Shown here in pieces: positions 2,113-54,838 of a stretch of DNA of 64,000 nt. The notes beneath the pieces were generated by a model, which saw only the letters and a list, made by a program, of their open reading frames with translations, ran no database searches and had not been told where the DNA came from. A program made the translations under genes and the position numbers. This DNA comes from Candidatus Latescibacterota bacterium. Lineage in GTDB: Bacteria > Krumholzibacteriota > Krumholzibacteriia > WVZY01. The stretch's first letter is position 1; the number at the start of each line of letters is the position of its first letter. The stretch covers positions 192,001 through 256,000 of the forward strand of contig CAWBQK010000006.1 of NCBI GenBank assembly GCA_963791045.1. Direction: 5' to 3'.

Positions 2113-3540
2113 ATGATCCAACTGGACCGCATTTCCGTCTCGCTCCCCCCCAACCGTTCCGACGCAAAAACCATTCTTGAACATATTTCGATGACCATCG
2201 GCGCCGGCGAGTGGGTGGCTCTGACCGGTCCCAACGGATCGGGGAAGTCGACTCTTTTAAAGACGCTGGCCGGGCTTTACCCGGCCCGGGAGGGTAGAGT
2301 CCGGTTTGGCGATGACGCGGAAGGATCGGCCGCACCGAGGCCGCGTATGGCCATTCTACTCCAGGAGCCGGACAACCAGTTTGTGGCGAGTTCTGTGGCC
2401 AACGAACTGGAGCTGAGCCCGCCGCCCGGCATCGCCGCCGTCGAGCGCGCGTCGCGGATTGAAGAGGCGATCGAGCGGTTCGGCCTTCGGGCATTCGTTG
2501 AGCGCAACCCGCACCGGCTCTCGGGAGGGGAGAAGCAGAGACTTGCCGTGGCGACCGTTTGGCTCGCCGCTCCCGATGTGCTCCTCCTCGACGAACCCAC
2601 ATCGTATCTCGATTCTGATGCGAGAAATCGTTGTGTCGAATTTGTCGGGACAATGAAACGTGAAGGGGTAACGATCGTGTGGGCGACGCCCGGCGGAGAG
2701 GATCTTCTCGATGCCGACAGGGTGGTATGTCTCGATAAGGGTCGCGTGTGTCATGACGGCCCGGCGCAAACCATCGGAGAATGGATCGAAAAATCCGGTG
2801 TGGATATTATTCCGCCGTTAAGCGGGTGCGCGGATGCGCCGATAAACCTGGCGGCGGACGGTGAGAAATCACCGGACACCGCGGAGGTGTTGATCTCACT
2901 TCGCGACGTTGGGTTTGCATATGACGAGGGCAACGTCCTGACCGGTGTGAACGCGGAGATCCGCGCGGGCGAGGTAGTGGGGATTTCCGGCAAGAATGGC
3001 TCGGGAAAATCGACGCTGCTGTCGCTCGTGGGTGGTGTGCTCGAACCGACCGATGGGGTTGTCGACCGCAAATACGAAAGTCCCGTCGTCCGACAGCCGG
3101 ATGGTGGTTCGGAGCAGGCCGTGTTCTATTTGTTTCAGAGCCCGGAGCGGCTGTTTTTTGCCGAAACGGTGGCCGAAGAAATCGCCTTCGGGTTGAAGTC
3201 CCTCGGGGTTGACGAGAGGGAAGCGACGTCGATCGTCGCCGAGTCACTGGACCGAGTGGGACTCGATCCGGATTCGTTCTCGTCGCGATCGCCCTTCTCC
3301 CTGAGCCTCGGCGAGATGCGCCGGGTCGCCTTCGCGATTGCCCTGGCGCTTCGCCCAAAACTCCTGTTGCTCGATGAGCCCAACTCCTGTCTCGACCGCG
3401 CCGGTCTGGAAGTGCTCGCCCGACTCATCGCTGATTTCAGCGCCCGGGGTTGTGCCGTTGTCATGGCCTCGCACGACGCACGGGTTCTCCGCGGGATGAC
3501 CCGCCGCGTCATCGACGTATCAGATGGTTTCTCGCCATGA
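2113..3540 (+). CDS. ECF-type ABC transporter ATPase with two fused ABC domains (EcfA-EcfA'-like)
   Basis: Two Walker A motifs (GPNGSGKST, GKNGSGKST), Q-loops QEPDNQF and FQSPERLFF, signatures LSGGEKQR and LSLGEMRR, two LLDEP motifs. Confidence 0.88.
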   Translation: MIQLDRISVSLPPNRSDAKTILEHISMTIGAGEWVALTGPNGSGKSTLLKTLAGLYPAREGRVRFGDDAEGSAAPRPRMAILLQEPDNQFVASSVANELELSPPPGIAAVERASRIEEAIERFGLRAFVERNPHRLSGGEKQRLAVATVWLAAPDVLLLDEPTSYLDSDARNRCVEFVGTMKREGVTIVWATPGGEDLLDADRVVCLDKGRVCHDGPAQTIGEWIEKSGVDIIPPLSGCADAPINLAADGEKSPDTAEVLISLRDVGFAYDEGNVLTGVNAEIRAGEVVGISGKNGSGKSTLLSLVGGVLEPTDGVVDRKYESPVVRQPDGGSEQAVFYLFQSPERLFFAETVAEEIAFGLKSLGVDEREATSIVAESLDRVGLDPDSFSSRSPFSLSLGEMRRVAFAIALALRPKLLLLDEPNSCLDRAGLEVLARLIADFSARGCAVVMASHDARVLRGMTRRVIDVSDGFSP

Positions 3541-3641
3541 TCTTGTTTGCTATTAGAGGTGGGCGGACACTTAGGGGCCGAAAACTAAGAGACGGTTCTG
3601 GTACCATACTCAGGCCCGATGAAGATTTTAGGAAGGACGAA

Positions 3642-5114
3642 ATGTTGAAGAATTTGTCAGCAAGAATTGGTATTGGAATAATTATCCTGCTATTTTGCTT
3701 TTCCAAAACCGCTCAGGCCACTGAAGGGACAAAATTTAATCTGCTTCTCAATCCGAAAATGAGCTCGGAAAATTCATTTTCGGGAAGGTTATTTATTTTA
3801 CTTGAAAGAGATCCATACTTTCTGCCCATGAATCGCACAAGACCATCAAATAACTCGCCGTGGTTTTCAACAGATATAGAATCTTGGAAATTAAATACAA
3901 ATCTGGTAATTGATGACGGGCTTTTGGGTTATCCGTATTCACCGGAGGACTTACCAGCAGGTATGTATTTGGCTCAGGCAGTGCTGGATATCAATAAGTA
4001 TGAACCTGGTTTTTTAAATAACCAGGGGAACTTCTACTCCAAACCAATAGCCATATATGTCGAGAAAGATAAACAGAAGGTGTATAACCTTATTTTAGAT
4101 CAGACAATTGAAGATACCTCCCCGGCAGAAACTCCCTTCCTTTTTGCCGCAAAATTAAAGAGTAATATCTTAACCGAATTTAATGGATACCCCACCTACC
4201 TCAAAGGAGCTGTCCATTTACCCGAGAACTATTTTGTCGATGTTCATCAATATTATCCGATTGTCTTTATATTGCCTGGTTTTGGCACCGCCTACGACAA
4301 GGCTTTTCAGGATGATTTCCAAAGGCAAAGATATGGTGTAACAAGCTATGGAAAGGATAAGATATTTATATTTTTGGATCAGGCCTGTCGGTTGGGCAAC
4401 CATGTTTGGGCAGATTCAGAAAATAATGGTCCCTGGGGCAGAGCTTTTGTGGAAGAACTCATTCCTTATATTAACAAAACATACAGAGTCACCACTGATC
4501 CTGATAAGCGATTTCTGCTGGGACAATCCTCAGGGGCATGGGCTGGATTGTGGCTCCAAATAAATAATCCCAAGAAATTCGGCGGGGTTTGGGCTCTTTC
4601 ACCTGATCCTATTGATTTCACTTCGTTTTTGGGAGTAAACATTTATTCAGGGGAAAGCAGTTTATATCAATCATCAGATCCAAAGGTTATTCAACGGACT
4701 TTGATGTTGTCAAAAATCGACCAGGTTTTTGGATCCGGCTGGGCTGTGAGTACATTTGAAGCGGTTTTCAGTCCAAGAAATAAGAAGGGAGAACCGCAGC
4801 AATTGTGGAATAGACAAACTGGCAAAATAGATTCAAAGGTGGCCCGAGCATGGGAAAAATATGATATCCATAAAATTATAAAACAGAAATGGACCATATT
4901 AATGCCGGATATCCAGGATAAAATTCATATCTATGTTGCAGAGGATGATCCCTTTGGTCTTCATATTCCAGTTCAAATGCTTCAAAAAACAATCAAAGAT
5001 GAAAATCTTGAGGGAATTGAAGCCCTGGTTTTCCCAGGCGGCGGACATGATCTCTGGTCAGATGAAATGAGGGAAAAAATATACACTACGATCAATTCTA
5101 AAATTACAGACTAA
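3642..5114 (+). CDS. Secreted alpha/beta-hydrolase, putative esterase family; AT-rich gene
   Basis: Signal peptide; YPIVFILPGFG, DSENNGPWGRAFVEELIPYI, nucleophile elbow GQSSG, C-terminal GGGHD. Confidence 0.8.
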   Translation: MLKNLSARIGIGIIILLFCFSKTAQATEGTKFNLLLNPKMSSENSFSGRLFILLERDPYFLPMNRTRPSNNSPWFSTDIESWKLNTNLVIDDGLLGYPYSPEDLPAGMYLAQAVLDINKYEPGFLNNQGNFYSKPIAIYVEKDKQKVYNLILDQTIEDTSPAETPFLFAAKLKSNILTEFNGYPTYLKGAVHLPENYFVDVHQYYPIVFILPGFGTAYDKAFQDDFQRQRYGVTSYGKDKIFIFLDQACRLGNHVWADSENNGPWGRAFVEELIPYINKTYRVTTDPDKRFLLGQSSGAWAGLWLQINNPKKFGGVWALSPDPIDFTSFLGVNIYSGESSLYQSSDPKVIQRTLMLSKIDQVFGSGWAVSTFEAVFSPRNKKGEPQQLWNRQTGKIDSKVARAWEKYDIHKIIKQKWTILMPDIQDKIHIYVAEDDPFGLHIPVQMLQKTIKDENLEGIEALVFPGGGHDLWSDEMREKIYTTINSKITD

Positions 5115-37139: not shown

Positions 37140-39490
37140 TTATTTTGTCACCACCATTTTCCTCGTGTCGGTGTAGCCGGGTGTGATGAGTCGGTAGAAG
37201 TACACACCCGAGGATACCCGTGCGCCGCTGTCATCACGCGCGTCCCACGTGACCGATTTCTCTCCCGGCGCCTCGACTTCATTCTTGAGTGACCGGACGA
37301 GCCGACCGTTTACATCGTACACGACGAGCGATACGTGTCCGCCGCCCGGCGGGACATCATAACGAATAACCGTCGACGGATTGAAGGGGTTCGGCGCGTT
37401 CTGATAGAGTGCGAACTTTTCGGGGACGATTGGATCCGGCTCGACTCCGGTGCCCGGGCTTGTCGGCGAAATCCGGATCGAGTACCAACCTTTTTTGTAG
37501 AGTTTGTTCGCAAAAACGACAAGGCCGTACCAATCGGTCGTTTGGGGAATGAAGATGCCGGTTTCCGAATCGCCGAGCTCCCATTGGGCCGACAAGCGAT
37601 CCGCAAAGTAGTTGCCGTTGCCCGGGTTTCTGAACAGCGAGAGCCGCATATCGGCAAGTCCGCTTCTGGTGAAACCGATTTGATAGGTCTTTCCCGCTTC
37701 CAGATACACATCCCAGATCTTGATGGAGCCGCAACCGCTGGTGTGATCGTAGACTCCCTCAACGGTCGTGTCGTACGGAAACTGTTCGGTGTCGTTGTCC
37801 GTCTGAACCGAGAACGTCTCCCATTGGTCGCCCTCAGTTACATGGGCGTAATAAGTTCCCGTCGCGCTGTGGTTGAAATCACCAACAATGAAAGACGCGC
37901 CGCCAAATGCCGGGGAGTCCGCGAGAAGGGTGCCTTTGCCGTCACACTGTGTGCGGAGAGCGATGCGTTTTAAGTCGCCCTCTGCGGGAAGCACGCCGAT
38001 CACCGACCAGTAGTCGGCGCTCTGTGCGAACGAGAAGTCGTTCGGCCAGCGCGACGTGTACACGCATTCCATTGATGTCAAAGGCATGCAGTCGTTGAGT
38101 TCCTGGACCTGGATCTCGTATCCGCTCGTGTGATCTTTTCGGCTGTCCGCAAACACGACGAGTCCGAAAAAGTCGCTTTGCGGCGCTGTGTAGTTGTGGG
38201 TGCCGCTGGTTGCCAATTCAAACTCCGCACTGACCCTTCCACCCCAGTATTCGCCCGTGCCAGGGTTCTTGTACAGGGAGAGATGTGGATCCTTCTGGCC
38301 CCATTTATTGAAGAAAAACTCGTATTCACGACCCGCGTCGAGATACAAGTCCCAGATCTTGACCCCATTGCACTCGCTGGTGGTTCCCGACATCGTGCCG
38401 ATTTCGTTTCTCGGGGGATAGAACAAATCGGCGCCGCCATCCCACTGGACGGTGAAGTCGAGATCGTACTCGGTGCTCTGCAAGTACGGATACCGGTCGG
38501 CGGGCAGCGGTGCGCTGCCAAAGTCACCGACGACGAGTTCAGTCTGGCCGACTCCCGCGTTGTACGATGAGCCGAGTTGGTTGCCCAGTGCGTCACAGGC
38601 GTCGATCAGGTAGAGGCTCATATCATCTAGTGTGTCGGGAGTTACGGCGAAGGCCGTCCAATAATCCCGTTCCTGGTAAAAGTGAAAATTGTTGGCGGGG
38701 CCGTCGGCAACGGTGTAGAGCTTGTGGTTGGTACAGACGGCATGGTCCATCGGAATGCAGTCGGAGAGTTTTTCGATGTTGATGGAGTAATACCATGATG
38801 ACGACGTGTTCCACGGCACGAACACAACAAAGCCATACCAGTCGCTGGCGGGGGCTGTGTAGAAGTGCCCCGTACTCTGTGGTGATGATATTTCGAATTC
38901 GCTCGCGTCTCGGCCCGCCCAGTAGTCGCCCGTCGAGGGGTTGCGAAAGATCGCCACGTTGGCTGTCAAACCTATCTGGGGGGCGAATGAGAACATGTAC
39001 TCGGCGCCTTCTTCGAGAAAAACATCATAGATCTGGATCATGTTGCAGCCCGCGCCCGTTCCGCCAAGCCAACCGCTTACCCACGGGCCGACGGGAAGTA
39101 TGTCGCCGCCTTGATTCCAATAGACATCATATGCGACATCTCCGCCGTATGTGACTTGCGGGTAATAAGTCCCGATCGCATTGTGATTGAAATCCCCGAC
39201 GATAAAGTCGGTGCCGTCCGTTCCCGTTGAAGATGCCAGCAGCGAACCCGTTCCGCACGAAGGGTACAAATAGATATCCTTGTCATCCGGACTCGACGGG
39301 ACCACTCCCACGACCGCCCAGTAGTGGTAGAACTGATTTATCGAGTAGTCCTGGGGTATGGTGGTCTCGGACTGGCAAACGCCTTCGGTCAGTGCGGTCA
39401 CTGGGCGTCGCGCCGCCTGCCCAGAGCAGGGCGCGCGAGAAAACCGGCCACAAAAACAATTGAGCGGATGGACTTGTTCGAAGCTGTCAT
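37140..39490 (-). CDS. Secreted triple-module protein with a C-terminal FlgD-Ig/T9SS-like domain, paralog A (indel near N-terminus)
   Basis: ATG 39490 with GGAG RBS and a signal peptide; three ~220-aa modules; tail FALYQNAPNPFNPSTVIRYDVP...SSGVYFYRL...RKMVVTK. Confidence 0.8.
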
Positions 39491-39524
39491 CTCGGGCTCC
39501 TTCAGGGGGTTCCCCTTTCAAACT

Positions 39525-41889
39525 CTACTTCATCAAAACCAGTTTCCGTGTCTCGCGGAAGCCCGGTGTTTCAATGCTGTAAAAATACACACCTGACGCG
39601 ACCCGGTTTCCGCTGTTGTCGTCGCCGTGCCATGTGACTGATTTCTCTCCAGGCGAGAGGCTCTCGCTGACAAGCGTTTTGACGAGCCGGCCGTTTACAT
39701 CGAATATTCTTAAACTCACGTTGGCGCCCCCTGACGGAACGTCATATCGGATCACTGTCGACGGGTTGAATGGGTTGGGGCTGTTCTGATAGAGCGCGAA
39801 CTGATCGGGGACGATGGGTTCCGGATCAACGCCGGTTCCAGTCCCGACCTGGTCGATTCGAATCGTGTAAGTGCCCGCGCCTTCCCGCTTGTTTGCAAAC
39901 GCGACGAGCCCGTACCAGTCACTCGCCGGAGGGGAATAGTTGAAGGTGGCATGGGCCGGGGTTTCCCATTCGCTGTTCGCTCTGCCCACCCAATAGTCGC
40001 CGATGCCGGGGTTATAGAAGAGAGCGATGTGAATATCTGATTGCCCGCTGCGTGTGAGTCCGATCTGGTAGGTTTCGCCGGCTTCCAGAAAAACATCCCA
40101 TACTTTCAGTTGGCGACAATCGATACCGAAGTTTCCGAGAGCTCCCTCAACCAATGTATTGAGCGGGAAAATATCTTCGAGTGCGTGAAATGCCACGGTC
40201 GGAATCGAATGAGTACAAGGCATCCGGATCTCCATACGTGATCCGGGCGTTGTACGTCCCCGCGGTAATGTGGTTGAAATCGCCGACGATGAAATCGGCG
40301 CCGTTTACATATCCTGACGTGGCAAGAAGCGTCCCTTCTCCATCGCACTCGGTGAATACATTGATATCTTTGTCATCTCCCTCGCTGGGGACGACTCCGA
40401 CTACGGCCCAGTATAGCCGGCGTCAAACGAAAAGTCCAGAGGGTAGCCAACCGACGTCACGCAGGATTCTGTAGGCAGCGGAGTGCAGTCGTCGTAGCGC
40501 TCGATCTCAACCGAATAGGTGCCCGAGCCGTTTATTGCCTTGCCGAATATGACAAGGCCGAAGACATCGCTTGCAGGGGCGGTGAACACGTAGCCCGTTA
40601 TGGGGTTCGAGACTCCCAATCGGCGTATGGACGTCCCCCCAGTACTCTGTGTCGCCGTTGAGATTCTGATAGAGAGCCACATGATGTTGGCGTCTCCTGT
40701 CTCCTCAAAATTGAGGCGGTATTCCATGCCGCCCTGGAGACCGAGGTCATATACATCAATGAGGTTGCAGCCCGTAGAGGTGGTGTTGATCACGCCGGAT
40801 ACGCCGGGCGCACCCACGGGACAGTAATTGGGACCATCCTTCCACTGGACCAGGTAATTTTGGTCGGCGCTCCCGTCGAAGACAACGGGGTAAACCGTGT
40901 GTGGGAACGCGTGGTTGAGATCGCCCGCGATGATCATGGTGTTGCCGGGAAAGGCGGGTGCCGACACTGCGAGATCCGTTCCGCCTTTGTCACATTCACT
41001 GTACAGATACAACCCTTTGGTGTCCGTGGGCTGGCCGATCATCGCCATTGCCACCCAGGACGTCGAAGTCGGTGCTAATCTCGTAGTCCGTCGCCGGGCC
41101 ACCCCCTGGCGAATATATTGGGGTGTAAAAACAATCGCCCGGATCGAGCGCTATGCAGTCGTTGAGTTTTTCGATTGTGATGCGAGTCGCTGCGCCATAG
41201 GATGCTACCTCGCTTGGAAAGGCGACAAGCCCATACCAGTCCGTTGCCGGGGGGACGTAGACGAACGCCGCCGTGTTTTCGTCGATCTTCCATTCACTGT
41301 CGCCGCGTCCTGCCCAATAGTCTGAAGTGCCGGGGTTTCTGAAGAGTGAGAGAAACACATCGGGGTGGGCACCGACTTCCATTTCAACTCTGTACTCAAC
41401 TCCTTCCTCGAGAAAGATATCCCAGATGCGGACGAGATTGCACGGCGAGGGGCTGCCTCCCGTCGTTACCCAGAAACATGTGCTTATGGGGAAGATCTCC
41501 CCGCCGGTTACCCATTCGACCGTGTATAGATCGGTTTCGGTGCCGAAGACAGTTGTCGGGTAGTAAGTGCCCACGGTGTTGTGGTTGAAATCTCCGACGA
41601 TGAAGTCGGTGCCGCTGATTTGTGTCGATGAGGCCAGCACGTCTCCCGCATTGCACTGTGTGTAAAGATAGATGTCCTTGTCGTCGGTGGCGTCCGGCGT
41701 CACGGCGACGACAGTCCAGTACAGCGAGGATTGATTGAATGACCAGTATCTGCCGTTACCTACCGTATCGACGCATGCTTCTGATGTGAGCGGTCTGCAG
41801 GCGTGTGTGTCACCAACGACGCACATGGCGGGAATGAAGAATCCAAGCAGAATAACGATTGAACAAATGCACCTGTGTGAGACTTTCAT
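39525..41889 (-). CDS. Secreted triple-module FlgD-tail protein, paralog B (frameshifted)
   Basis: MKVSHRCICSIVILLGFF signal peptide; modules with DDKDIYLY, DFIVGDFNH, IWDIFLEEG, DWYGLVAF; FlgD tail ending RKLVLMK. Confidence 0.8.
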
Positions 41890-41959
41890 TTCGGGCTCCT
41901 CCGTGAGGGGTGCCCGTGCGTCGAATGTTAACGCTCGAGTCGGCGCGCGGGTCGTTGGA

Positions 41960-42424
41960 CTACTTGTTCCGGCTCTCCAGGTATTCTTCCAGTTTGGCTC
42001 GTTCCTGGGGTGTCAGTCCTTCGATGCCCGGCGCTCGTGGGATGTTTTCGATGGTAGAAAACGCCTCGACTTTTTCCGGCGCGCTCCGTTGTATCTGGTG
42101 CGGACGGTTTTTCGATTGTGCGAGTTTGTCACGCTCGGCCTGTGTCATTCCGGCTTTTGGGTCCCTTTTTATGATCGGCTCGGAGACAGTTCCAACATTG
42201 ATGAATTCCATCGGAACCGATCGCGTTGTCACGGGCAACAGGCGTTTTTCCTTCTCGAGGGCGGTCAAGACATAGGGCTTCATCTCAGGCCCGATCGTGG
42301 ACACCGCGGGCAGTTTTACCGAGTTATCCCCGGCGTAGCCCAGGCCTATCCATATGATCGCCGGAACGAGAAGCACCGCGACGACGATTGTCGCGATAAT
42401 CAATTGTTGTTTGTTGTTCCGCAT
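41960..42424 (-). CDS. Small exported or membrane-anchored protein s1
   Basis: N-terminal hydrophobic helix; three [LM]TxxE[KR]xK motifs; paralog of s2. Confidence 0.8.
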   Translation of the reverse strand: MRNNKQQLIIATIVVAVLLVPAIIWIGLGYAGDNSVKLPAVSTIGPEMKPYVLTALEKEKRLLPVTTRSVPMEFINVGTVSEPIIKRDPKAGMTQAERDKLAQSKNRPHQIQRSAPEKVEAFSTIENIPRAPGIEGLTPQERAKLEEYLESRNK

Positions 42425-42473
42425 TTCAGAATCCCCTTACGTCTGTGAAACAATCGCTACTCCCAATTCGGAT

Positions 42474-44838
42474 TTATTTCATCAAAACCAGTTTCCGGGT
42501 TTCGCGGAATCCCGGAGTTTCAATACTGTAGAAATACACACCGGAAGCGACCCGGTTTCCGCGGTCGTCGTCGCCGTGCCAGGTGGCTGATTTCTCCCCG
42601 GGAGAGAGAGTCTCACTGACAAGAGTTTTGACGAGCCGGCCGTTCACATCGAATATTCTCAAGCTCACACTGGCGCCCCCGGCAGGGACATCATAGCGGA
42701 TCACCGTCGACGGGTTGAATGGATTTGGCGTGTTCTGATAGAGCGCGAACTGATCGGGGACGAGGGGTTCCGGATCAACGCCGGTTCCAGTCCCGACATG
42801 GTCGATTCGAATCGTGTAGGTGCCCGCGCCTTCCCGCTTGTTTGCAAAAGCGACGAGCCCGTACCAGTCGCTCGCCGGTGGGGAATAGTTGAAGGTGGAA
42901 TGAGCCGGGGTTTCCCATTCGCTGTTCGCCCTGCCCACCCAATAGGCGCCGTTGCCGGGATTATGGAAGAGAGCGACGTGAATGTCTGATTGCCCGCTGC
43001 GCGTGAGTCCGATCTGGTAGGCTTCGCCGGCTTCCAGAAAAACATCCCATATTCTAAGCTGGCGACAGTCGATACCGAAGTTTCCCAGCGCTCCCTCAAC
43101 CATAGTATTGAGCGGAAACATGTCCTCGGGCGCGGAAATGCCACGGTCGGAATCGAACGAGTACAAAGCATCCGGATCTCCAAACAGGATCCGGGCGTTG
43201 TACGTCCCCCCGGCAACGTGGTTGAAATCGCCGACGACAAAATCGGCGCCAAAGAGATACTGCGAGCCCGTCAGTTGAGTCCCTTCTCCATCACATCCCG
43301 TATAAACGTGAATATCTTTGTCATCTCCCTCGCTGGGGACGACTCCGACGGCCGCCCAATATCCGCCGGCGTCAAACGAAAAGTCCAGGGGGTAGCCAAC
43401 CGACGTCACACAGGATTCTGTGGGCAGCGGAGTGCAGTCATCGTAGCGCTCGATCTCAAGTGAATAGGTACTCGATCCATCAATTTCATCGCCGAACACG
43501 ACAAGACCATAAATATCGGTGACCGGGGCGGTGAAAACGTAGCTATCCGTGGGATCCGAGAGTTCCCACGCACTATTGTCGCGTCCCTGCCAATACTCCG
43601 CATTGGCAGAGTTGACAAAAAGCGCCACTTGAACGTCGGCGTTGCCGCCTTCCATGAACTTGACGCGATAGTCGACGCCGGCATCGAGTGCAAGATCGTA
43701 GATATCGATAATATCGGTGTCTGTGGTTGTCGTGTTTATGGTCCCAAAAACTCCCGGCGCACCGACGGGAAGTTCGACGGGTCCTTCCGTCCATTGGAAC
43801 ATGTAGTCTGCGCCGACGTCACCGCACCCAATAGTAGGGTAGACGGTGGTTGTTGACGCGTGGTGGAAATCGCCCACAATAACTTCCGTAATTTCCGCGT
43901 AGCTGTTGTTCGACTGGGCTAGCTGCGTTCCTCCCTTGTCACATTCGGTATAGAGGGTCCAAGCACTTGTCGTCCACGTATTGACAGGTCACTGCCATCG
44001 CCATCCAGGTTGACGTAATGGGGGTGATGGCGTAGTCCGTTGCCGGGCCGCTCGCGACCGAATAGAGATGTGTGATTGCACAAACATCGGGCTCAAGCGA
44101 TATGCAGTCGTTTAGTTCCTCGAACCTTACTCCGACCGGCGCCCAAGTAGGCATCGGTTCGTCGGAAAACGCGACAACACCGTACCAATCGGTTGCCGGA
44201 GGAACATATATAAACGGCGGGGTGTCTCCATCGATTTCCCATTCGCTTTCATTTCGCCCGCCCAAGAACTCCGTACTGCCGGGGTTTCTGAAAAGTGAGA
44301 GAAACCCGTAGGGAGGACCCATCGCAATGAAGTCAATACGGTATTCAACGTCTTGCTCGAGATATACGTCCCAGATCCTGACGATAGGACATGCCGCGCC
44401 GGGGTATCCCAGGTTACTGTTTCCAAAAACACTAATGGGAAGGATATCTCCGCCGGTCACCCACTCGAGGGTATACGGATCGGTTTGGCTTCCGTATGAG
44501 GTTTCCGGATAGAAGGTGCCCGCGGCGTTGTGGTTGAAGTCGCCGACAATGAAATCGGTGCCGCTGGTTCCCGTCGAAGTGGCCAGTATGGTCCCTGATG
44601 CGCAGTTTGAATAGAGGGCAATGTCTTTGTCATCGGTTGGTTGCGGCATCACGGCGACGACCGTCCAGAACGCCGCGATCTGGGAGAATGAGAAGTCGCT
44701 GAATACCCCAACTGTGTCGACACAGACTTCCGATGTGAGCGGTCGGCACGGGCGCTTCGTCGCCCGCGATGAACGTCGGGGAATAAGAAATCCAAAGCAG
44801 AATAACGGTAAAAAGATGGATTTGTGTGAGATTTTCAT
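42474..44838 (-). CDS. Secreted triple-module FlgD-tail protein, paralog C (frameshifted)
   Basis: MKISHKSIFLPLFCFGFLI signal peptide; the same three modules; 3' end nearly identical to paralog B. Confidence 0.8.
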
Positions 44839-44908
44839 CTCGGGCTCCTCCGTGGTGTGCCCGTGCGTCGATACTGTTAACGCTTGGGTCGGCGCGCTGG
44901 TCGTCGGA

Positions 44909-45376
44909 TTACTTGTTCTGGTTTTTCATGTATGTTTTGAGTTTGGCCCGTTCCTGTGGCGTAAGTCCTTCGACGCCGCGTGCCCGCGGGATATTCTCAA
45001 TTGTCGAAAACGGTTCCGCTTTTTCCGGTGTCCACAGTTGTTTTTCGTGAGGCCTGGTCTTCCCCTGTGCGAGTTTATCACGATCGGCCTGTGTCAAGCC
45101 GATGTTGCGGCCGCTTTTCGTGCCTGGAGTTGCGATCGTCCCAATATTCGCGGGGTCCATCGGAACCGATTTCGTTGTTACGGGCAACAGGCGTTTTTCC
45201 TTCTCGAGGGCGGTCAAGACATAGGGCTTCATCTCGGGCTCGATGGTTGAAACCGCGGGAAGTTTCACCGAATTTGGATCCCCCGCGTAGCCCAAACCTA
45301 TCCATATGATCGCAGGAACGAGAAGGACCGCGGCGACGACCGTCGCAATCATCAACCGTTGTTTTTTATTCCGAAT
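44909..45376 (-). CDS. Small exported or membrane-anchored protein s2
   Basis: Shares VLLVPAIIWIGLGYAGD.NSVKLPAVSTI.PEMKPYVLTALEKEKRLLPVTT and FSTIENIPRA.G.EGLTPQERAKL with s1. The codon equivalent to the s1 start reads ATT. Confidence 0.78.
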   Translation of the reverse strand: MRNKKQRLMIATVVAAVLLVPAIIWIGLGYAGDPNSVKLPAVSTIEPEMKPYVLTALEKEKRLLPVTTKSVPMDPANIGTIATPGTKSGRNIGLTQADRDKLAQGKTRPHEKQLWTPEKAEPFSTIENIPRARGVEGLTPQERAKLKTYMKNQNK

Positions 45377-45424
45377 TTCAGATTCCCCTTGCGTCAGGAC
45401 TCAATCGTTTCTCATAAATTGAAT

Positions 45425-47836
45425 TTACTTCATCAAAACCAGTTTCCGGGTTTCGCGGAAACCCGGCGTTTCAATACTGTAGAAATACACTCCCGACGCG
45501 ACGCGGTTTCCGCGGGCATCGTCGCCGTGCCAGGTGGATGATTTCTCCCCGGGGGAGAGCGCTTCATTGACCAGCGTTTTACGAGTCGGCCGTTCACGTC
45601 GAAGATTCTCAATTGAACGTGAGCGCCGCCCGCGGGGACGTCATATCGAATGACGGTCGATGGATTGAACGGGTTCGGTGTGTTCTGATAGAGAGCGAAC
45701 TTGTCGGGCGCAGCGGGGTCGGGATCGACGCCCGTTCCCACACTTGTCGGAGATATACGGATTGTATAGTTGCCCCATTTTTCACGTTTGTTTGCGAACG
45801 CAACGATTCCGTACCAGTCGGTCACCGGCGGCGTATAGTCGAACGTGGTCTGGGCCGGAGTTTCCCATACGGCGCTTCCTCTACCCACCCAGTAGTCGCC
45901 GCTCCCCGGATTGTGGAAAAGCGCGACCCAGATGTCGTTGGTCCCACCTCTGGTGAGGCCAACCTGGTACGTTTCTCCCGCCTCGAGATAGACATCCCAG
46001 ATTTTGATATGGTCACATTCAGTGCCGAAATCTCCAAAAAAGCCCTCGACCACCGTGTCGTGCGGGAACATGTCTTCGGAGGGAGAATTGCCGCGGTCGG
46101 TGTCGATCGTAAAGGGTTCGTTTGTGTCTCCGTATGTGACTCGCGCGTGATACGCCCCCGGGGCGACATGATTGAAGTCTCCGATGACAAAATCGGCGCC
46201 TTCGATATACCCAGATGCGGCTAGTAGCGTTCCTTCACCATCACACTCAGTGAACACACGGATGTCCTTGTCGTCGCCGTCTCCGGGGGTGACGCCGACC
46301 ACCGCCCAGTACCCGTTCGCGTCAAATGAGAAATCATAGGGATGATTGTCGATCCAACTGCACGCCCCCGATGGTTCGAGATAGCAGTCGTTGTAGACCT
46401 CGATAGTGAGACCGTATGTGCCGGTGCCGCCGGTGATGTAGTTGCCCATGCCGTTCCCGAACACGACGAGGCCATAAACGTCGGATGCCGGAGCGGTGAA
46501 CACATGGCCGGCCGTCGGGTCGGTGAGTTCCCACAGGCTCTGATACCGATCCGTCCAGAATTCGCCGCTGCCGGAGTTTTGGAAGAGTGCCACATGGATG
46601 TCGGCGTCCCCCGTCTCCCCAAAGGTGACCCTGTACTGGGTTCCTGCGAAGAGCTCAAGATCGTAAACCTCGACAACGTTGCCCCCCTCGCCCAGAGTGT
46701 TTATTTCGCTTGCTATGCCGGGGGCGCCGATCGGAAGAATGCTGGGACTCTGTGTCCACTCGATGGTGAAATTCTCCGAGATTGTCCCCAGGTCGATTCT
46801 GGGGTGAACGGTATAGGGATCGGCGTGATTGAAATCTCCGACGATAATTTCGGTCCGTCCATAGTACCCCGACGCCCGCGTAGGACTGGGCAAGGAGCGA
46901 TCCGTTCTCGTCGCATTCAGTCCGAACCTTCAAGTTTTCTGGTCGGACGATTGAGGCGCGACCACTATCGCCATCCAGGAAGATGCCGTGGGAGCGACGG
47001 AGAAGTCCGTTAAGGGACCATCATTGACCGAATAGCGCGATCCTGTTCTGCACACGTCGGGGTCAAGGAATATGCAGTCGTCCAGTTTTTCGAATATGAC
47101 GCCCGCCGGATTGAGGATGGTTTCTACCTTGTCCGGAACCAGGGTTACGCCGTACCAGTCGGTGGCGGGCGGGGTGTAGATAAATGGAGCGGCAAAGCCG
47201 TCGATTTCCCACTCGCTGTCGTCGCGCCCGCCCCAGAAGTCCGAAGTGCCGGGATTTCGAAAAAGGGAGAGAAACAATTTTGGAAAGTACTCATCCATTC
47301 CACAGAATCACACGGTAATCGAAACCCGTTTCGAGATACGCATCCCAAACTCTGACGAGATCGCAGGTCGGTCCGTCGTCACCGGTGGTGGCGGGGTTGT
47401 AATTGCTGATCGCGAGGATGTGCCCGCCTCTGACCCAGTCGATATGGTAAGGGTCGGTTTCGGTGCCGTAATGAGTCGTCACGTAGTACGTGCCCAACGT
47501 GTTGTGGTTGAAATCTCCAATAATAAAGTCGGTGCCGTTGGTGCCATTTGATGAGGCGAGGGGCGTTCCCGACGCGCAGTTCGGGAAAAGCATGATGTCT
47601 TTGTCGTCGGCGGGGTCGGGCGTCACCGCGATGATCGTCCAGAATGGCACGGTCTGATTGAATGAGAAGTATCTGCCATTGCCGACTGTGTCGACGCAGA
47701 CTTCAGAGGTGAGCGGTCGGCACGGTTGTGCCTGGATTTCGGCCGTTGATAACACCAGAAGACAAAGTATACACACAGAGACGATGATCGCCCGGGCGAT
47801 TGCCCATTGTTCGATTCCGTTGGATCGATTTTCCAT
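45425..47836 (-). CDS. Secreted triple-module FlgD-tail protein, paralog D (frameshifted)
   Basis: MENRSNG...signal peptide...AQPCRPLTSEVC; three modules; FlgD tail FALYQNTPNPFNPST; stop TAA at 45425-45427. Confidence 0.8.
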
Positions 47837-48256
47837 CTTATCCCTTCCTGCTGTCACGCCGCGACCCGGGTTGGCTTGCCGCCACCCTGGATGAAGGGCA
47901 CAAAAATACGCGGTGCAAAATTGCAACCGCGCGGATTCGGTTCAAAAAAAACACTTGTAGTTGCCATGTGCCGACATGCCCGATCATACCTCCATATGAT
48001 CACTGGTTTGCAGATGATATCTGTCAATTATACCATAAGCGCCGGGCTATATCTGCTTATTTTTCAACGTTTGGCGGTGTTTTGACCGTTCGTTTGGTGA
48101 GGGTGGTTTTGCAGGTTTGTCGAGGATCGCTGGTCCCGCATGTGCCGCAGTTCACCAATTCAGGCACAAGCTATGCTTTAACGCGTGGTGGAAGGGCAGT
48201 TACCATATTTTGAGTCCTCCAGCCGGAAATCACGTGACAGCGGAGGGTTACGCGAT

Positions 48257-50311: not shown

Positions 50312-50513
50312 AAGTTCACGAGATCCAAGGACTTCCCGATCCGCCGGATTTCGTTTGCCCGGGGTGGAAAGCCGCCCCGGGCAGAGGTTCTTGCTCCAAT
50401 AAATCCGCTTCAATGCGTCTTTTCGCACGCGATCTACTCCAAACATAGATATACAGGTTGAAACGCGCCCCTCCGCGCCCGTAACATAATGCGGCTCGGC
50501 CAGCACCCGGCGA

Positions 50514-52283
50514 GTGGCGAACGCACATGACCCAGCACGAGGAGTATTGAGAGCTGTGATCAACGACATCATCGAAGCGGTCAAAGTCGAACAAGAACGA
50601 ATCGAAGAGCCCCGTAACCGGAGCCGTTATTTTATTTTCGGGAAACTCGGCGAGCAGGCGACCGAGGATTATCTCGTGTTTGTTTTTCAGAACGCGCCCG
50701 AGCGGGTCATCCGCGACGCGCGCTATCACGGCGCCCGCCAACAGGAAAGTCTCTTCAAAGTCGGTGACGTATTTATCTCCGGGTACATGACGCTTTCATC
50801 ACCCGGGCTGGCCGTTGCTTTCACATTTGATGAAATCGCATTCCACAACATTGAACCCGAGTGGCTCCAGGCGGCGACGGCGCGGGGAATCGAGTACGTC
50901 ATGGACAACCGCGATCTCAATATGTACATCCATGATTTTCTCGACGGAAACAGGATGACGGACAATCCGTTTCTCGAAGAGATCCTCGTTGCCCGTGACG
51001 TGATGACGCAAGCGCCGCTTGCACACGCCGGACACTTCGACGACTTGAACCCATCGCAGAACCAGGCGATCGAAAAGATTCTTTCGCAACGAGTGACCTT
51101 TGTGTGGGGGCCGCCGGGGACGGGGAAGACCAAGACGCTTGCGGCGATGGCCGCGACTCTTGTGAACGCGAAGAAGCGGGTTTTGCTTTCGGCGCTGTCC
51201 AATATGGCGCTCGATCAATTGCTCGCTGCCACGGTCGAACGGCTCGACTCTTCGGTCAAGAAAGTGCCCATCGCGCGCACGGGGAGCCGGATGGATCGCG
51301 AGATGGAAGTTTTTGGGCGCCGGGCGTTCCAGGCGAATGGGTTCAGGGGGAAACGCGCCGGGGCCAAGTGGGCCGAGCACGTCGAGAACTCGCGGCTCGT
51401 GGCGGCGAACTTCACCATGCTCTCGTTTCCGGGCGCCGTGTTTCCTGGTGTGTTTGATTATGTTATCGCCGACGAGGTGTCGATGGCAAACATTCCCAAC
51501 CTCGCCGCGGCGACATTTTATGCGACGGGGGGAATTGCTTTTGGTGGAGATCCCTATCAGCTTCCGCCGATTTATCCCGAGGACTCCGAAACTCCCAACG
51601 AGTGGTTCCGGCAGAGCGTTTTTGAGAAAGCAGGTATCATCGACCGGCATGATCCGAGGGTCGCTTTTCTCGATACTCAGTATCGTATGCAGACGGAGAT
51701 CGGTGATCTCGTGAGCGATTTGTTTTATGGTGGGGAGCTTTTGACCGGTACGGCGCCGCTCCCGGTTTTGCCCGCTTATGACGCGCGCGTCGTGTTTATC
51801 CAGAGCTCCGGGCGGGTTCAGTATTCCGAGGCGTTCCCCGACGAGCTCGGTGACGAACGGCGATTCAACGAACCGCATGCCGATGCCGTTGTGGATGCGG
51901 TCAAGGCGCTCGTCGACTGTGGCGTGTCGGGGAGTGAGATCGGCGTTATTACGCCGTATAACGCGCAGGTCGTCGTGATTACGCAGAAGCTTAAAGTGGC
52001 GTTTGCGAAAAAGCAGCGCGCCCTTCGGGACTTAAAGGTTTCCACCGTGCATTCGTTCCAGGGGCAGGAGCGGCGTGTGATTGTTGTTGATTTCACCGAT
52101 GATAATGTGCCGCCGACACACCTCACGGCCAAGTGGGAGCTTATTAATGTCGCGTTGTCGCGGGCGAAAGAGCAACTTGTTATTGTGGGGAACCGGTACT
52201 ATCTGACCAACGATGAATTCTTCAGTTCGGACGAAGTCTCGGTTTTTGGGCGGATGCTCGAGCATGCCGTGATAGTCGACTAA
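50514..52283 (+). CDS. Superfamily 1 helicase, Upf1/DNA2/NAM7-like (AAA_11/AAA_12)
   Basis: Q motif LNPSQNQAI, Walker A WGPPGTGKT, SNMALDQL, IADEVSM, GDPYQLPP, LDTQYRM, IGVITPYNAQV, STVHSFQGQE, NVALSRAK. Confidence 0.92.
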   Translation: MANAHDPARGVLRAVINDIIEAVKVEQERIEEPRNRSRYFIFGKLGEQATEDYLVFVFQNAPERVIRDARYHGARQQESLFKVGDVFISGYMTLSSPGLAVAFTFDEIAFHNIEPEWLQAATARGIEYVMDNRDLNMYIHDFLDGNRMTDNPFLEEILVARDVMTQAPLAHAGHFDDLNPSQNQAIEKILSQRVTFVWGPPGTGKTKTLAAMAATLVNAKKRVLLSALSNMALDQLLAATVERLDSSVKKVPIARTGSRMDREMEVFGRRAFQANGFRGKRAGAKWAEHVENSRLVAANFTMLSFPGAVFPGVFDYVIADEVSMANIPNLAAATFYATGGIAFGGDPYQLPPIYPEDSETPNEWFRQSVFEKAGIIDRHDPRVAFLDTQYRMQTEIGDLVSDLFYGGELLTGTAPLPVLPAYDARVVFIQSSGRVQYSEAFPDELGDERRFNEPHADAVVDAVKALVDCGVSGSEIGVITPYNAQVVVITQKLKVAFAKKQRALRDLKVSTVHSFQGQERRVIVVDFTDDNVPPTHLTAKWELINVALSRAKEQLVIVGNRYYLTNDEFFSSDEVSVFGRMLEHAVIVD

Positions 52284-52314
52284 CCTGTATTTGCGCACGA
52301 GGGATGGAGTAGTA

Positions 52315-52665
52315 GTGGGAACGAACGATCTGAACGCTTATGAAATATTGGTCGCGCGGGCCTTCCGTCTTCTTCGAGAGTGGAGCCGTGCGCATCCATT
52401 CGAGACCGATCCGACCGACGCCATCGAAACGATTGCCGCGTCATGCGTGCCCGTCGAACCGTTGGAGATAAAAGCGGCGGCCGTTTGCGTGGGAATCGAC
52501 ACCATTGCCTCGGACGCGGAAATCCCCAAGAAAAACGGGGGAGAGGGGTGGGAAGCCCTTCGAATCCCGCTCTCCGAGTTGATTGAAGAAGAGCTCTGGT
52601 TGGAATGGGATGCCGTTGTGGGGGAGCAGGAGCTCATGAATGATTTCGAGGATGATTTGGATTGA
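52315..52665 (+). CDS. 116-aa acidic protein resembling the T7 Ocr (gp0.3) DNA mimic
   Basis: GGAG RBS 5 nt before GTG; 27 D/E versus 8 K/R by hand count; colinear motifs match my recollection of T7 Ocr (DAI..A...VP, GID, E.+..+LW, acidic tail). The ORF is well supported; the homology is by eye only. Confidence 0.6.
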   Translation: MGTNDLNAYEILVARAFRLLREWSRAHPFETDPTDAIETIAASCVPVEPLEIKAAAVCVGIDTIASDAEIPKKNGGEGWEALRIPLSELIEEELWLEWDAVVGEQELMNDFEDDLD

Positions 52666-52726
52666 GGAAATCCTGCGTGGCTGTTGTCGAAAAAGATTCA
52701 ATCATATGTGTGGAGGACCATGATTG

Positions 52727-54838
52727 ATGGCAAATCAAAACATTGATTCTCCTCCTCCGGTACAGAAATCAATCGAGCTCCATGCCGGATTGAGTGTTGT
52801 GGCCGCGGCTGTCCTATTTCTTCTTCTTGTTTCTCCATACCCAAACGGCATATTCGAGTCGCAGACCAGATTGCTTGCCACATTGTGCATTCTTGGTTTC
52901 AGTTCGATCTGTTGGCTTTTCTGGGGCGATCGTTTGACGAGGTTACCGCGCGAAGATAGTTTTGTCCTACTAGTGATGGCGATCTCGTACGGATTGCCGG
53001 TGTTGTTTTCTTTCAATCCCCACGAAGCCATTAAAGGTTTTTTGTGGGTTGAGGCATCGCTTGTAGTTTACTTGCTCGCAGCGACGGCCGGACGGAAGCC
53101 ATGGTTTCGCTCCGCCGTGGTCTCCACTTGGGTTGCCAGCAGCGGTGTTGTCTCCCTCCTCGGCCTATTGGTCGGTGGTGGAGTGCTTCATTTCGACGAA
53201 TATGTGGTACACCATGCCCTGACTTCAAGCTTTGGATACGCCAACGTATTCGCGATCTACATACTGAGCGCATCGGTGTTGGCTTTCGGCGAATGGGAAG
53301 CACGGCCCCGGAAGTCTTCACATTTGTATTCAATAGTATTGTATCTAAACATGGTGTGTTTGATTGCCACAGACTCACGGTTGGCTTGGTTGCTGCTTCC
53401 TGTTGTGATACTCGGTTACGTTATTTCTGCGCGAAAAACTGGCATTACATCAAAGCTCGGTCCTCTGGCGGTCATGGGTGTTGGCCTCTTTGTTGGATTT
53501 CAGATTGGGCCCCGGATAGGGTGTACATTTCCTCTTGCTGACTTTTGGACTCCGGTGATCCTTGGACTGCTTCTGGCATTATCTGTTGGGCCTTTGTTGG
53601 CTGTCTCGACACTCATACTTCGTCGTTTCTCCGGTAATGCGAAAAAATGGCTTGTTCTCGGAGCTGTCGTTTTGTCGATAGTCATGGGTGTCGGATTTGC
53701 GCCCAGGTTGATGCCGGCCGGAGTTGGGCGGCAGATTCGAACACTTGCTCCAAACAAGTCGGCCGACCAGCGCCGCCTGTACGTGTTGAATGACGCAGGC
53801 AAAATGTTTCTGCACTCTCCCTTCGGGCGGGGGGGTGGTGCGTGGCTTTGTCAGTATCGGCAATTTAGTTCGTACGGTTACATCATGAATGACCCTCACA
53901 GCGGGATCGTTTTACTTGCTATTGAGGGGGGTGTTCTTGCCTTAGCTTCCTATCTGGCCCTCTGGTTTTTGTTTCTGAGACGCTCGACCAGGGCTTTGAG
54001 GCAGAGCGGTGGGTCTGAGCGGACCCAGTTGGCGGCGATGATTTGGGCTCTGCTGGCCCTGGGGCTTCATAGTGCACTGGACGTGGACCTCTCTTTTGGC
54101 GCTTTGCTGTTCCCGCTGATGGCTTTCTTTGGGGCCACTGCCGGCAAGACCGCTCCGATTGATCTATCCGCGAATAGAAAGACCCGCACCGTTTTGTGGA
54201 TTCTCACATTTGTGATGCTGTTCTCCACTCTGGCCGCCGGCAGCCTTGCGGTCGGACAGAGATTCTCCAATGAGGCGCGAAGCGCCGTTCGCAATGACCA
54301 GTACGAAACGGCCCGCGACATTTTGAGTGCTGCTGTCCGATTCGCGCCGATTGATCCACAGATACTGGATGGCCTCGGTCGTCTTGAGTCAAGAATTGGT
54401 TGGGAAACCGAAAACCCCGAGTTGGTTCGAAGGGGTTTGAATCGTTTGGAGAGAGCCTCGGTTCTGGCTCCCTCAAACCATGGTATTCGGGTTCGATACA
54501 TAGAGGCGTTGATGGCGGTCCACTCTGAAGAGAACGTTGATGAGTTGATTGAGTCTATTGTTGGCCGTCGGCCATGGGACATCAAAGCATACGAGGATGT
54601 GGCGAGACTTCGATTGATGTCGGCGCGTTCTTTTTGGGCCCAGGAGAGGTATGCCATGGCTAACATAGAGGCTCGGAAGGTCCTCGGTTTGTTCGACAAG
54701 ATTGCATTCGTGAGGGCCAACGCACCAAAAGGCATCCCGGGCGACGAAAATCTTCCTCCTTCATCAGAAACCCTCGATGATTGCCGAAGGCAAGCGCGGA
54801 CTATCCTCGATGGAATATCCCCATTTACCGGCGACTAG
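52727..54838 (+). CDS. O-antigen ligase-like (Wzy_C) membrane protein with C-terminal TPRs
   Basis: Many transmembrane segments; SSFGYANVFAIY, TDSRLAW, GRGGGAW, DPHSGIVLLAIEGG, LHSALDVDLSF; helical C-terminus. Confidence 0.8.
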   Translation: MANQNIDSPPPVQKSIELHAGLSVVAAAVLFLLLVSPYPNGIFESQTRLLATLCILGFSSICWLFWGDRLTRLPREDSFVLLVMAISYGLPVLFSFNPHEAIKGFLWVEASLVVYLLAATAGRKPWFRSAVVSTWVASSGVVSLLGLLVGGGVLHFDEYVVHHALTSSFGYANVFAIYILSASVLAFGEWEARPRKSSHLYSIVLYLNMVCLIATDSRLAWLLLPVVILGYVISARKTGITSKLGPLAVMGVGLFVGFQIGPRIGCTFPLADFWTPVILGLLLALSVGPLLAVSTLILRRFSGNAKKWLVLGAVVLSIVMGVGFAPRLMPAGVGRQIRTLAPNKSADQRRLYVLNDAGKMFLHSPFGRGGGAWLCQYRQFSSYGYIMNDPHSGIVLLAIEGGVLALASYLALWFLFLRRSTRALRQSGGSERTQLAAMIWALLALGLHSALDVDLSFGALLFPLMAFFGATAGKTAPIDLSANRKTRTVLWILTFVMLFSTLAAGSLAVGQRFSNEARSAVRNDQYETARDILSAAVRFAPIDPQILDGLGRLESRIGWETENPELVRRGLNRLERASVLAPSNHGIRVRYIEALMAVHSEENVDELIESIVGRRPWDIKAYEDVARLRLMSARSFWAQERYAMANIEARKVLGLFDKIAFVRANAPKGIPGDENLPPSSETLDDCRRQARTILDGISPFTGD

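Follow-up and report, generated by a model that had tools for sequence, protein, structure and literature searches.

A small acidic protein encoded just behind a helicase gene in a Candidatus Latescibacterota bacterium quite probably adopts, to judge from its predicted structure, the fold of the phage T7 protein Ocr. Both genes lie on the plus strand of the 64,000-nucleotide stretch of DNA that was analyzed (hereafter the window; positions 192,001 to 256,000 of contig CAWBQK010000006.1, GenBank assembly GCA_963791045.1), where the longest open reading frame (ORF) for the helicase spans 50514..52283 and the gene for the small protein spans 52315..52665. Ocr, which is known from virulent phages, is the classic example of an anti-restriction protein that mimics DNA. 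The small protein probably also acts as a DNA mimic, a role that we read from its fold and charge only. A preliminary description of this DNA had proposed that the two genes form a module, a candidate system of defense or counter-defense. As they are not found together elsewhere, we see no support for a dedicated two-gene system. We prefer to view them as accessory genes that are independent of each other within a shared lineage-specific transcription unit, with the small gene encoding a DNA mimic, and we regard the chances of this as evenly balanced.

Predicted fold of the small acidic protein

The small ORF is a real gene and not a chance reading frame, because homologs of it exist. A phmmer search of 1.84 billion representative proteins returned seven at E ≤ 0.001, which were the query itself, five small proteins of 81-113 amino acids, and a 1100-residue repeat protein that we rejected as spurious. 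A six-frame search of related genomes recovered a 105-residue homolog in genome G203 (protein P0130, labelled Candidatus Krumholzibacteria), and when 5.8 billion proteins were searched with a profile, the family came to 12 members in all, a number small enough that the family must be considered very rare. Among the six reading frames, that of the small gene has the best codon-usage score (0.266 per codon, compared with 0.251 for the helicase gene and 0.272 for a core S46 peptidase gene). Read from its GTG codon at 52315, the gene encodes 116 residues with an isoelectric point of 4.05 and a net charge of -19, made up of 27 aspartates and glutamates (D+E) versus eight lysines and arginines.

An AlphaFold model of this protein, built from an alignment of 12 sequences, reached a predicted local distance difference test (pLDDT) value of 82.8 and a predicted template modeling (pTM) score of 0.73. 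When the model was compared with the PDB by Foldseek, the top seven matches were all chains of T7 Ocr, six of them with template modeling (TM) scores of 0.58-0.68; for entry 1s7z, the match had an E value of 0.059, a probability of 1.00, and TM scores of 0.62/0.67. A scan of 48,161 representative PDB chains that made no use of Foldseek gave Ocr (1s7z_A) as the sole chain at Z ≥ 8, with a Z score of 10.4 and a root mean square deviation of 2.8 Å over 96 of 106 residues at 19% identity, and the runner-up had a Z score of 6.7. In a further structural comparison, seven Ocr entries scored between 9.4 and 10.4, and the next entry scored 6.2. The viral structure library BFVD pointed in the same direction, as the top matches to the model were phage proteins of ~100-140 residues and included an 'OCR-like antirestriction protein' of Streptomyces phage Paedore and 'Protein 0.3' of Yersinia phage YpP-Y. 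A single BLASTP comparison also aligned residues 8-62 of the small protein with residues 7-63 of T7 Ocr (28% identity over 57 colinear residues, E 0.001), and the two proteins have the motif D..DAI...A...VP.......GID in common.

The general properties of the two proteins agree as well. T7 Ocr has 117 residues, both proteins are all-helical, and both are extremely charged (29% D+E and a net charge of -28 for T7 Ocr versus 23% and -19 for the small protein). Across all 12 members of the small family, the D+E content ranges from 23% to 31%. We therefore consider the Ocr fold probable, because the match extends over the full length of both proteins, stands far ahead of all others, and agrees with size and charge.

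Several observations weigh against this assignment. None of the 12 family members matched Ocr when searched against Pfam at E ≤ 10, and this library presumably contains an Ocr model. An hhalign comparison of the small family with T7 Ocr yielded a probability of only 1.6%, and a PDB profile search with the family did not list Ocr. The structural match depends on a predicted helical-bundle model derived from a shallow alignment of 12 sequences, and the tool used for the scan cautions that Z scores under ~13 can reflect a common arrangement among helical proteins. Furthermore, the small protein had no PHROG match at E ≤ 0.1, and its family is recognized by neither PADLOC nor NCBIfam. The preliminary description had called the protein Ocr-like on the basis of its composition, a judgment that the predicted fold sustains (in Foldseek, the 48,161-chain scan, and BFVD) and that sequence models do not.

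Given these points, the protein might be no DNA mimic at all and rather an acidic helical bundle that resembles Ocr by convergence or through an artifact of the model, for example an adaptor that acts via its acidic C-terminal tail. In addition to the missing link at the level of sequence profiles, two family traits would suit such a role: the members with 81-83 residues are missing the central third of the fold, and the most conserved part of the family is the C-terminus, which lies outside the BLASTP match to Ocr. We nevertheless find this quite unlikely. Ocr is the single top outlier in two independent searches and is matched over the full length of both proteins, Ocr-like phage proteins lead the viral library, the 28% identical stretch is colinear and carries the common motif, and the small protein matches Ocr in length and charge.

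According to excerpts of two sources (PMC12707154; bioRxiv 10.1101/2025.06.06.658234), T7 Ocr, the product of gene 0.3, counters restriction by mimicking DNA. It inhibits type I restriction-modification enzymes and the PglX protein of BREX, and it also binds RNA polymerase and triggers PARIS. A further point against a role of this kind for the small protein is that the host assembly, which is 81% complete, contains no HsdS (PF01420) or N6_Mtase (PF02384) domain. Its target may therefore differ from those of T7 Ocr, and the neighboring helicase is among the possible targets. On our preferred reading, the small protein would be a very divergent relative, or perhaps a structural analog, of T7 Ocr. 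As a rigid, polyanionic, helical body, it would compete with DNA for the binding site of an enzyme that handles DNA, be it of the restriction or BREX-methyltransferase type or another.

The small family also has features of its own. The helix at the N-terminus of its members (A..LR.WA..P.E.DP..AIE.I) is conserved, the C-terminus (LW.EW.VIEGEREL.NEFEDDLD) still more so, and the members fall into long forms of 113-122 residues and the short forms mentioned above. Unlike T7 Ocr, the family therefore has its own conserved C-terminal tail and includes versions without the middle segment. The setting of the gene differs too, in that the small gene is chromosomal, has no phage or mobile-element genes around it in the 64 kb, and is not a leading early gene of a virulent phage. 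No tblastn match to the small protein was found in 50,697 phage records or 72,556 plasmid records, and the ESM Atlas gave no usable match. What emerges is a family that sequence searches do not connect to Ocr, with an Ocr-like predicted fold, size, and charge, residing in the chromosomes of uncultivated sediment bacteria. If the fold prediction is true, then Ocr-type mimics range more widely than T7-like phages, and natural variants of them would include minimal forms of 81-83 residues.

Distribution of the two genes

The proposal of a module was accompanied by a suggestion to look for a downstream acidic ORF near homologs of the helicase. To collect such homologs, the alignment of the helicase N-terminal domain was used in a metagenome scan, which yielded 44 loci, or 46 when two genome loci are added. 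Of these, 28 encode the entire helicase and extend 300 bp or more beyond it (a set that includes the near-duplicate pairs L093/L095, L098/L099, and L117/L118), and at none of them is the helicase followed by a small acidic ORF on the same strand. Likewise, a charge filter for ORFs of 60-200 residues with a net charge of -10 or lower, on either strand and within 2 kb of the helicase, identified no acidic small partner at any of the 46 loci. The six ORFs that passed this filter were discarded, since two run antisense to the helicase itself and four encode unrelated larger proteins. When a hidden Markov model (HMM) of the small family was run in six frames over 134 loci, it matched only the loci of the host genome and that of G203, plus one weak match at E 0.006.

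The genomes of the phylum tell the same story. The helicase N-terminal domain is encoded in three of 208 genomes (G000, G197, and G201), and the small-family profile matches strongly in two (G000 and G203) and weakly in a third (G187, inside a 465-residue frame). Each gene is thus found without the other, the small gene in G203 and the helicase in G197 and G201. Downstream of the helicase, G197 carries a convergent gene for an HNH endonuclease and G201 a gene for a lysine-rich secreted protein. In G203, the small gene is flanked by a gene for a DUF5640 lipoprotein and by one, convergent with it, for an M90 peptidase, and neither a helicase on its 6.7-kb contig nor a helicase N-terminal domain in the genome was found. 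A scan of the genomes with an alignment of the whole helicase proved unsuitable for this purpose, as it relied on generic patterns, those of Walker A and motif V, and its 73 loci encode distant superfamily 1 (SF1) helicases. These 73 loci, at 23-32% whole-domain identity and at most 58% over short motif segments, were left out of the neighborhood count.

The preliminary description had further suggested that the small protein might be a cognate inhibitor or antitoxin of the helicase. An obligate role of this type is unlikely, because the helicase family works without the small protein. The sober result is also useful, as it indicates that the two-gene proposal fails at the level of conservation and that the helicase N-terminus, discussed below, is an ordinary Upf1 accessory module.

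Relationship between the two genes

A number of local features join the two genes and count against regarding them as independent. As first described, the two genes have the same orientation and are separated by 31 nt, and such an adjacency within one 3.7-Mb genome is unlikely to be pure chance. The sequence GGAG precedes the GTG codon at 52315 by 5 nt, and a consensus scan detected no terminator-like site between the helicase gene, the small gene, and the gene for a 704-residue protein that follows. The helicase and small genes are also alike in GC content (0.568 and 0.566) and in the codon scores given above, and the flanking genes for proteins of 252, 704, and 209 residues have atypical codon scores of 0.02-0.07 (0.020 for the 704-residue protein) and lower GC content.

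Comparison with near-identical strains adds to this picture, using short contigs from sequencing runs that cover small shares of the stretch. Contigs spanning 52195-52345 and 52241-52391, each with three differences, run across the helicase-small gene junction. Two other contigs (runs X2 and X3), one of which comes from an RNA library, leave the window exactly after 52665 and have an identical foreign continuation. The junction is kept and the downstream neighbor is changed, which fits two genes moving as a unit. It should be kept in mind that this conservation is not independent evidence, because the strains belong to the same lineage. RNA-library contigs cover 52318-52665, a coverage that is no proof of transcription. 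Finally, the pair may exist elsewhere, given that the contexts of the small gene were read for two of the 12 family members (G000 and G203), a set that does not include the four closest homologs of the small protein (P0131, P0128, P0122, and P0132).

These features might be taken to indicate a lineage-specific functional pair, in which the Ocr-fold protein binds in the nucleic-acid channel of the helicase and holds it inactive as an inhibitor or regulator, or serves as bait, so that a phage factor which displaces or captures it frees the helicase. The common strand, the short gap with its ribosome-binding site and without a terminator-like site, the common composition that sets both genes apart from their flanks, and the junction kept while the flank changes after the stop codon of the small gene would all be in keeping with this idea. 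So would the fact that relatives of the helicase are genes of defense islands, and a DNA mimic placed beside a nucleic-acid motor is mechanistically plausible. We consider such a pair unlikely, however. The absence of the partner from all 28 and all 46 loci examined argues that a cognate inhibitor is dispensable for the helicase. In G203 the small gene is present and the helicase is not, and the agreement among strains amounts to descent.

A more specific version can be imagined, in which a self-encoded mimic with the Ocr fold was recruited as the partner of a defense-island helicase. The mimic might plug the channel until infection, or it might serve as a decoy that senses phage factors targeting DNA-like surfaces. 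This we hold to be fairly improbable. To our knowledge, no defense module gated by a host-encoded DNA mimic has been described so far, and if this version were true, the locus would represent one. In any case, the locus offers a cheap and concrete test case for asking whether a cell can control a nucleic-acid motor by means of its own DNA mimic.

Another explanation is that a mobile element, now degraded, carried both genes and that neither has a role in the host, the Ocr-like gene being a leftover anti-restriction gene and the helicase a gene for defense or replication. Both families are sporadic (three of the 208 genomes for the helicase and two, by strong E values, for the small protein), the neighboring 704-, 252-, and 209-residue proteins are encoded by genes of atypical codon score and lower GC content, a search of 12 genomes from the same family found no homolog of the 704-residue protein, and the region varies between strains. 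It is nonetheless a very unlikely account. The 64-kb window contains no integrase, transposase, phage, plasmid, or tRNA gene, the small protein is unmatched in the phage and plasmid records, and a scan of viral contigs with the N-domain alignment gave 15 pattern matches, none of which encodes a relative of the helicase. Moreover, the codon usage of both genes resembles that of the host, which means that neither arrived recently.

We return, then, to the reading in which two accessory genes, each independent of the other, share a transcription unit specific to this lineage. The helicase belongs to a family that is scattered across sediment bacteria and often located in defense islands, and it would function independently of the small protein. 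The adjacency of the two genes would most likely stem from their co-transfer or from insertion into the same variable spot.

Structure of the helicase

The helicase was said at the outset to be a compact Upf1-like protein with all motifs and no obvious nuclease domain, and this is confirmed by Pfam, by an alignment of 30 family sequences, by the structural model, and by structural alignment with VIA-align. Its longest ORF (50514..52283, plus strand) encodes 589 residues from a GTG codon and corresponds to a superfamily 1B (SF1B) helicase of the Upf1/IGHMBP2 type. Pfam reports AAA_11 (9e-21) and AAA_12 (2.3e-36) in addition to weaker generic P-loop and helicase families, and it finds no nuclease or other specific extra domain. 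The motifs Walker A, DE, GGDPxQLPP, QYRM, HSFQGQE, and NVALSRA are invariant in the 30-sequence alignment; the Walker A sequence GPPGTGKT is encoded at 51108..51131 (plus strand; residues 199-206), and its columns are among the invariant ones. A word-based search recovered 1032 homologs at E ≤ 0.001 among 7999 scored candidates, and the best 120 of these 1032 are mostly 575-600 residues long, with 97-100% coverage of the query and 39-66% identity.

The N-terminal ~170 residues had been considered unassignable. The region indeed exists and is conserved in the family, including the segments NRSRYFxFGK and GIEYVMDxR, and it can be assigned. In an AlphaFold model built from the 30-sequence alignment (pLDDT 90.4, pTM 0.87), a long helix (residues 7-29) is followed by strands (38-104) and helices (105-158) before the first RecA domain begins. 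Foldseek ranked Dna2 first for this model and listed UPF1, ZNFX1, IGHMBP2, and Senataxin/Sen1 among its top matches, with E values from 1e-32 to 1e-27. With VIA-align, residues 8-589 could be aligned to residues 3-638 of IGHMBP2 (Z 31.5, 485 residues aligned) and to residues 295-900 of UPF1 (Z 31), whereas an alignment to UvrD starts only at residue 171. Because UPF1 and IGHMBP2 align from residue 8 and UvrD only from residue 171, the modeled N-terminus consists of the defining elements of Upf1-like helicases, the stalk and the 1B barrel. It is encoded at 50535..51023 (plus strand; residues ~8-170) and is predicted to consist of the stalk helix, a six-stranded 1B-like barrel, and the return helices.

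The protein is accordingly a bare, minimal core with a stalk, a 1B barrel, two RecA domains, and intact ATPase motifs. By analogy of fold, it is most likely driven by ATP and translocates in the 5′-3′ direction on single-stranded RNA or DNA, where it would serve as a sensor or motor. The NCBIfam model for the IGHMBP2 family (TIGR00376) scores the helicase at 162.3 bits, which is below its cut-off of 348.9. Its best PADLOC matches are to MkoA models (1.6e-59 and 5.8e-50), and MkoC is matched too, in each case over the helicase parts only. Identification of the protein as a Mokosh, Dna2, RecD, or Gabija GajB component was rejected, as the matches are confined to the common helicase core.

Comparison with known systems

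The complete core of stalk, 1B barrel, RecA1, and RecA2 is the same in UPF1, IGHMBP2, Senataxin/Sen1, and the helicase part of Dna2. Unlike those Upf1-like helicases, the protein described here is bacterial and sporadic, has 575-589 residues, and is devoid of CH, R3H, and nuclease domains.

Among defense systems, Mokosh is described in part of bioRxiv 10.1101/2022.05.11.491447 as consisting of the helicase MkoA and the phospholipase D (PLD) nuclease MkoB, or of the fused protein MkoC, with the PLD nuclease being needed. The same portion of that source assigns to Mokosh a Upf1-like helicase of the COG1112 type, a likeness to the helicase studied here. The differences are considerable. Only residues 313-583 are matched, and these to the C-terminal part of MkoA models with >1100 positions; the protein has no kinase domain, and there is no fused or nearby PLD nuclease. 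In the PADLOC check that had been proposed for the locus, the helicase parts of MkoA and MkoC are matched, with no MkoB match among the 51 ORFs of the window and no match for the small protein.

A split nuclease-helicase resembling Dna2 or AddB provides another comparison. A PF12705 neighbor of this type accompanies five of the 46 relatives of the helicase, whereas the neighbor here is an acidic protein with a predicted Ocr fold and no such nuclease is present. The nearest parallel in print comes from a portion of PMC11090510 on CoCoNuT systems, in which some of the loci with a gene for a UPF1-like helicase have one for a DMP12-like DNA mimic as well; the mimic is a different protein and the system a different one. 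Full-text literature searches turned up neither a pairing of a Upf1-like helicase with an Ocr-like protein nor a description of the small family, in agreement with the earlier statement that no such system was known.

Genomic neighborhoods of helicase relatives

The surroundings of helicase relatives are rich in matches to defense genes. The count covers 37 loci, with four near-duplicate loci and L079 left out, and these 37 are not fully independent of one another. Of their 119 flanking ORFs, 24 have PADLOC matches at E ≤ 1e-8. The corresponding control, the 51 ORFs of the window, has a single one, an ABC ATPase that matches mad3/mad8 (Fisher p = 0.0015). Once generic matches are removed, which include ABC ATPases (L080, L083), a sigma factor (L098), a protease (L100), and an IS21-type ATPase (L111), clear defense neighbors remain at 12 of the 37 loci. 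It is plausible that the family represents a defense-island helicase with changing partners, and the copy in the window is an outlier in its setting.

The neighbors identified by PADLOC beside helicase relatives are diverse. DruA and a HerA-like ATPase occur together at L092 and L102, and at L097 the gene for a HerA-like ATPase adjoins that of the helicase. An Old/GajA-like and an LmuB-like protein are encoded at L093, PDC-S02 and a methyl-directed restriction enzyme at L094 and L096, and PDC-S02, HEC-05, and a PN effector at L105. The remaining loci have a methyltransferase (L090), a PLD nuclease located 2.3 kb upstream (L091), PDC-S05 (L104), or PDC-S01 (L120 and L121). At L092 (2532-5406) and L102 (1763-5808), the helicase gene is positioned directly downstream of the genes for DruA (DUF4338; E 4e-85 and 9e-89) and the HerA-like ATPase, and DruA, the HerA-like ATPase, and the helicase may form a recurrent module.

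A gene for a PD-(D/E)XK nuclease (PF12705) adjoins the helicase at five of the 46 loci (L090, L105, L113, and L117/L118). These genes encode 222-237 residues and are found at L090:5250-5960, L105:7757-8449, L113:7673-8338, and L117:5061-5738, with L118 being a near-duplicate of L117. They stand immediately upstream or downstream of the helicase and, together with it, resemble a split Dna2-like nuclease-helicase.

A further group is formed by L098, L099, L106, and L107, where the helicases have ~810-845 residues with a C-terminal extension of ~250 residues. Upstream in these four loci is a small gene that looks, from its sequence, like a nucleotidyltransferase gene, and at L098 and L099 a HEPN-like gene, also recognized by reading the sequence, is found beside it. 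A sigma-70 gene lies directly downstream of the helicase in L098, L099, and L106.

Gene boundaries and surroundings of the locus

The likely start of the helicase is the GTG codon at 50556, giving a protein of 575 residues, rather than the one at 50514, because the N-termini of the family line up with residue 15 of the 589-residue ORF. The gene call in the database (P0002) has the same start. For the small gene, the ORF list also offers a TTG codon at 52291, 7 nt past the helicase stop codon, which would yield 124 residues (52291..52665, plus strand). P0131, the closest homolog of the small protein at 63% identity, begins with MRDGIIVG, which aligns with RDGVVVG encoded before the GTG codon at 52315. 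As far as can be told from sequence, the TTG codon may be the true start; the conservation at 52291-52314 may alternatively be caused by the ribosome-binding site.

Upstream of the helicase, a terminator-like hairpin of 14 pairs, 10 of them G-C, follows the gene for the 252-residue protein (50354..50385, plus strand; found by consensus scan only) and is likely to mark the 5′ limit of the transcription unit. A weak match to a sigma-70-like promoter (TTGAAA-18 nt-TAACAT, 9/12 matches) is situated before the helicase at 50458..50487 on the plus strand, in a region where sigma-70-like sites are no more numerous than in shuffled sequence.

Downstream of the small gene, the 704-residue membrane protein (52724..54838, plus strand) has a weak Wzy_C match, as in O-antigen ligase-like proteins, and tetratricopeptide repeats (TPR). 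Its gene is probably context and not part of the helicase-small gene pair. The spot after 52665/52666 looks like a strain-variable site for surface polysaccharide genes.

The 64-kb window as a whole is ordinary chromosome, with genes for peptidases, transporters, a glycosyltransferase, an ADP-ribosylglycohydrolase, DUF3857 proteins, and an array of secreted proteins with FlgD_ig and type IX secretion system (T9SS) domains. Searches for synteny used two of these proteins. A 689-residue DUF3857 protein has one clear homolog (36% identity, in G196) and weaker matches in G198 and G207, and a 485-residue secreted protein belongs to a large paralogous family. The genera of the same family are too diverged for synteny to define the boundaries of an insertion. 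The array itself (37140-47926, minus strand) consists of paralogous proteins with C-terminal FlgD_ig/T9SS sorting domains. Its 485-residue member has 81 matches in its own genome, and four tandem paralogs (48-59% identity) are encoded just upstream on the same contig. Lastly, an ORF with an esterase domain at 3450-5114 of the window appears compositionally foreign, as its GC content at third codon positions (GC3) is 0.39 and the GC content at 4001-5000 is 0.398, compared with ~0.55 elsewhere.

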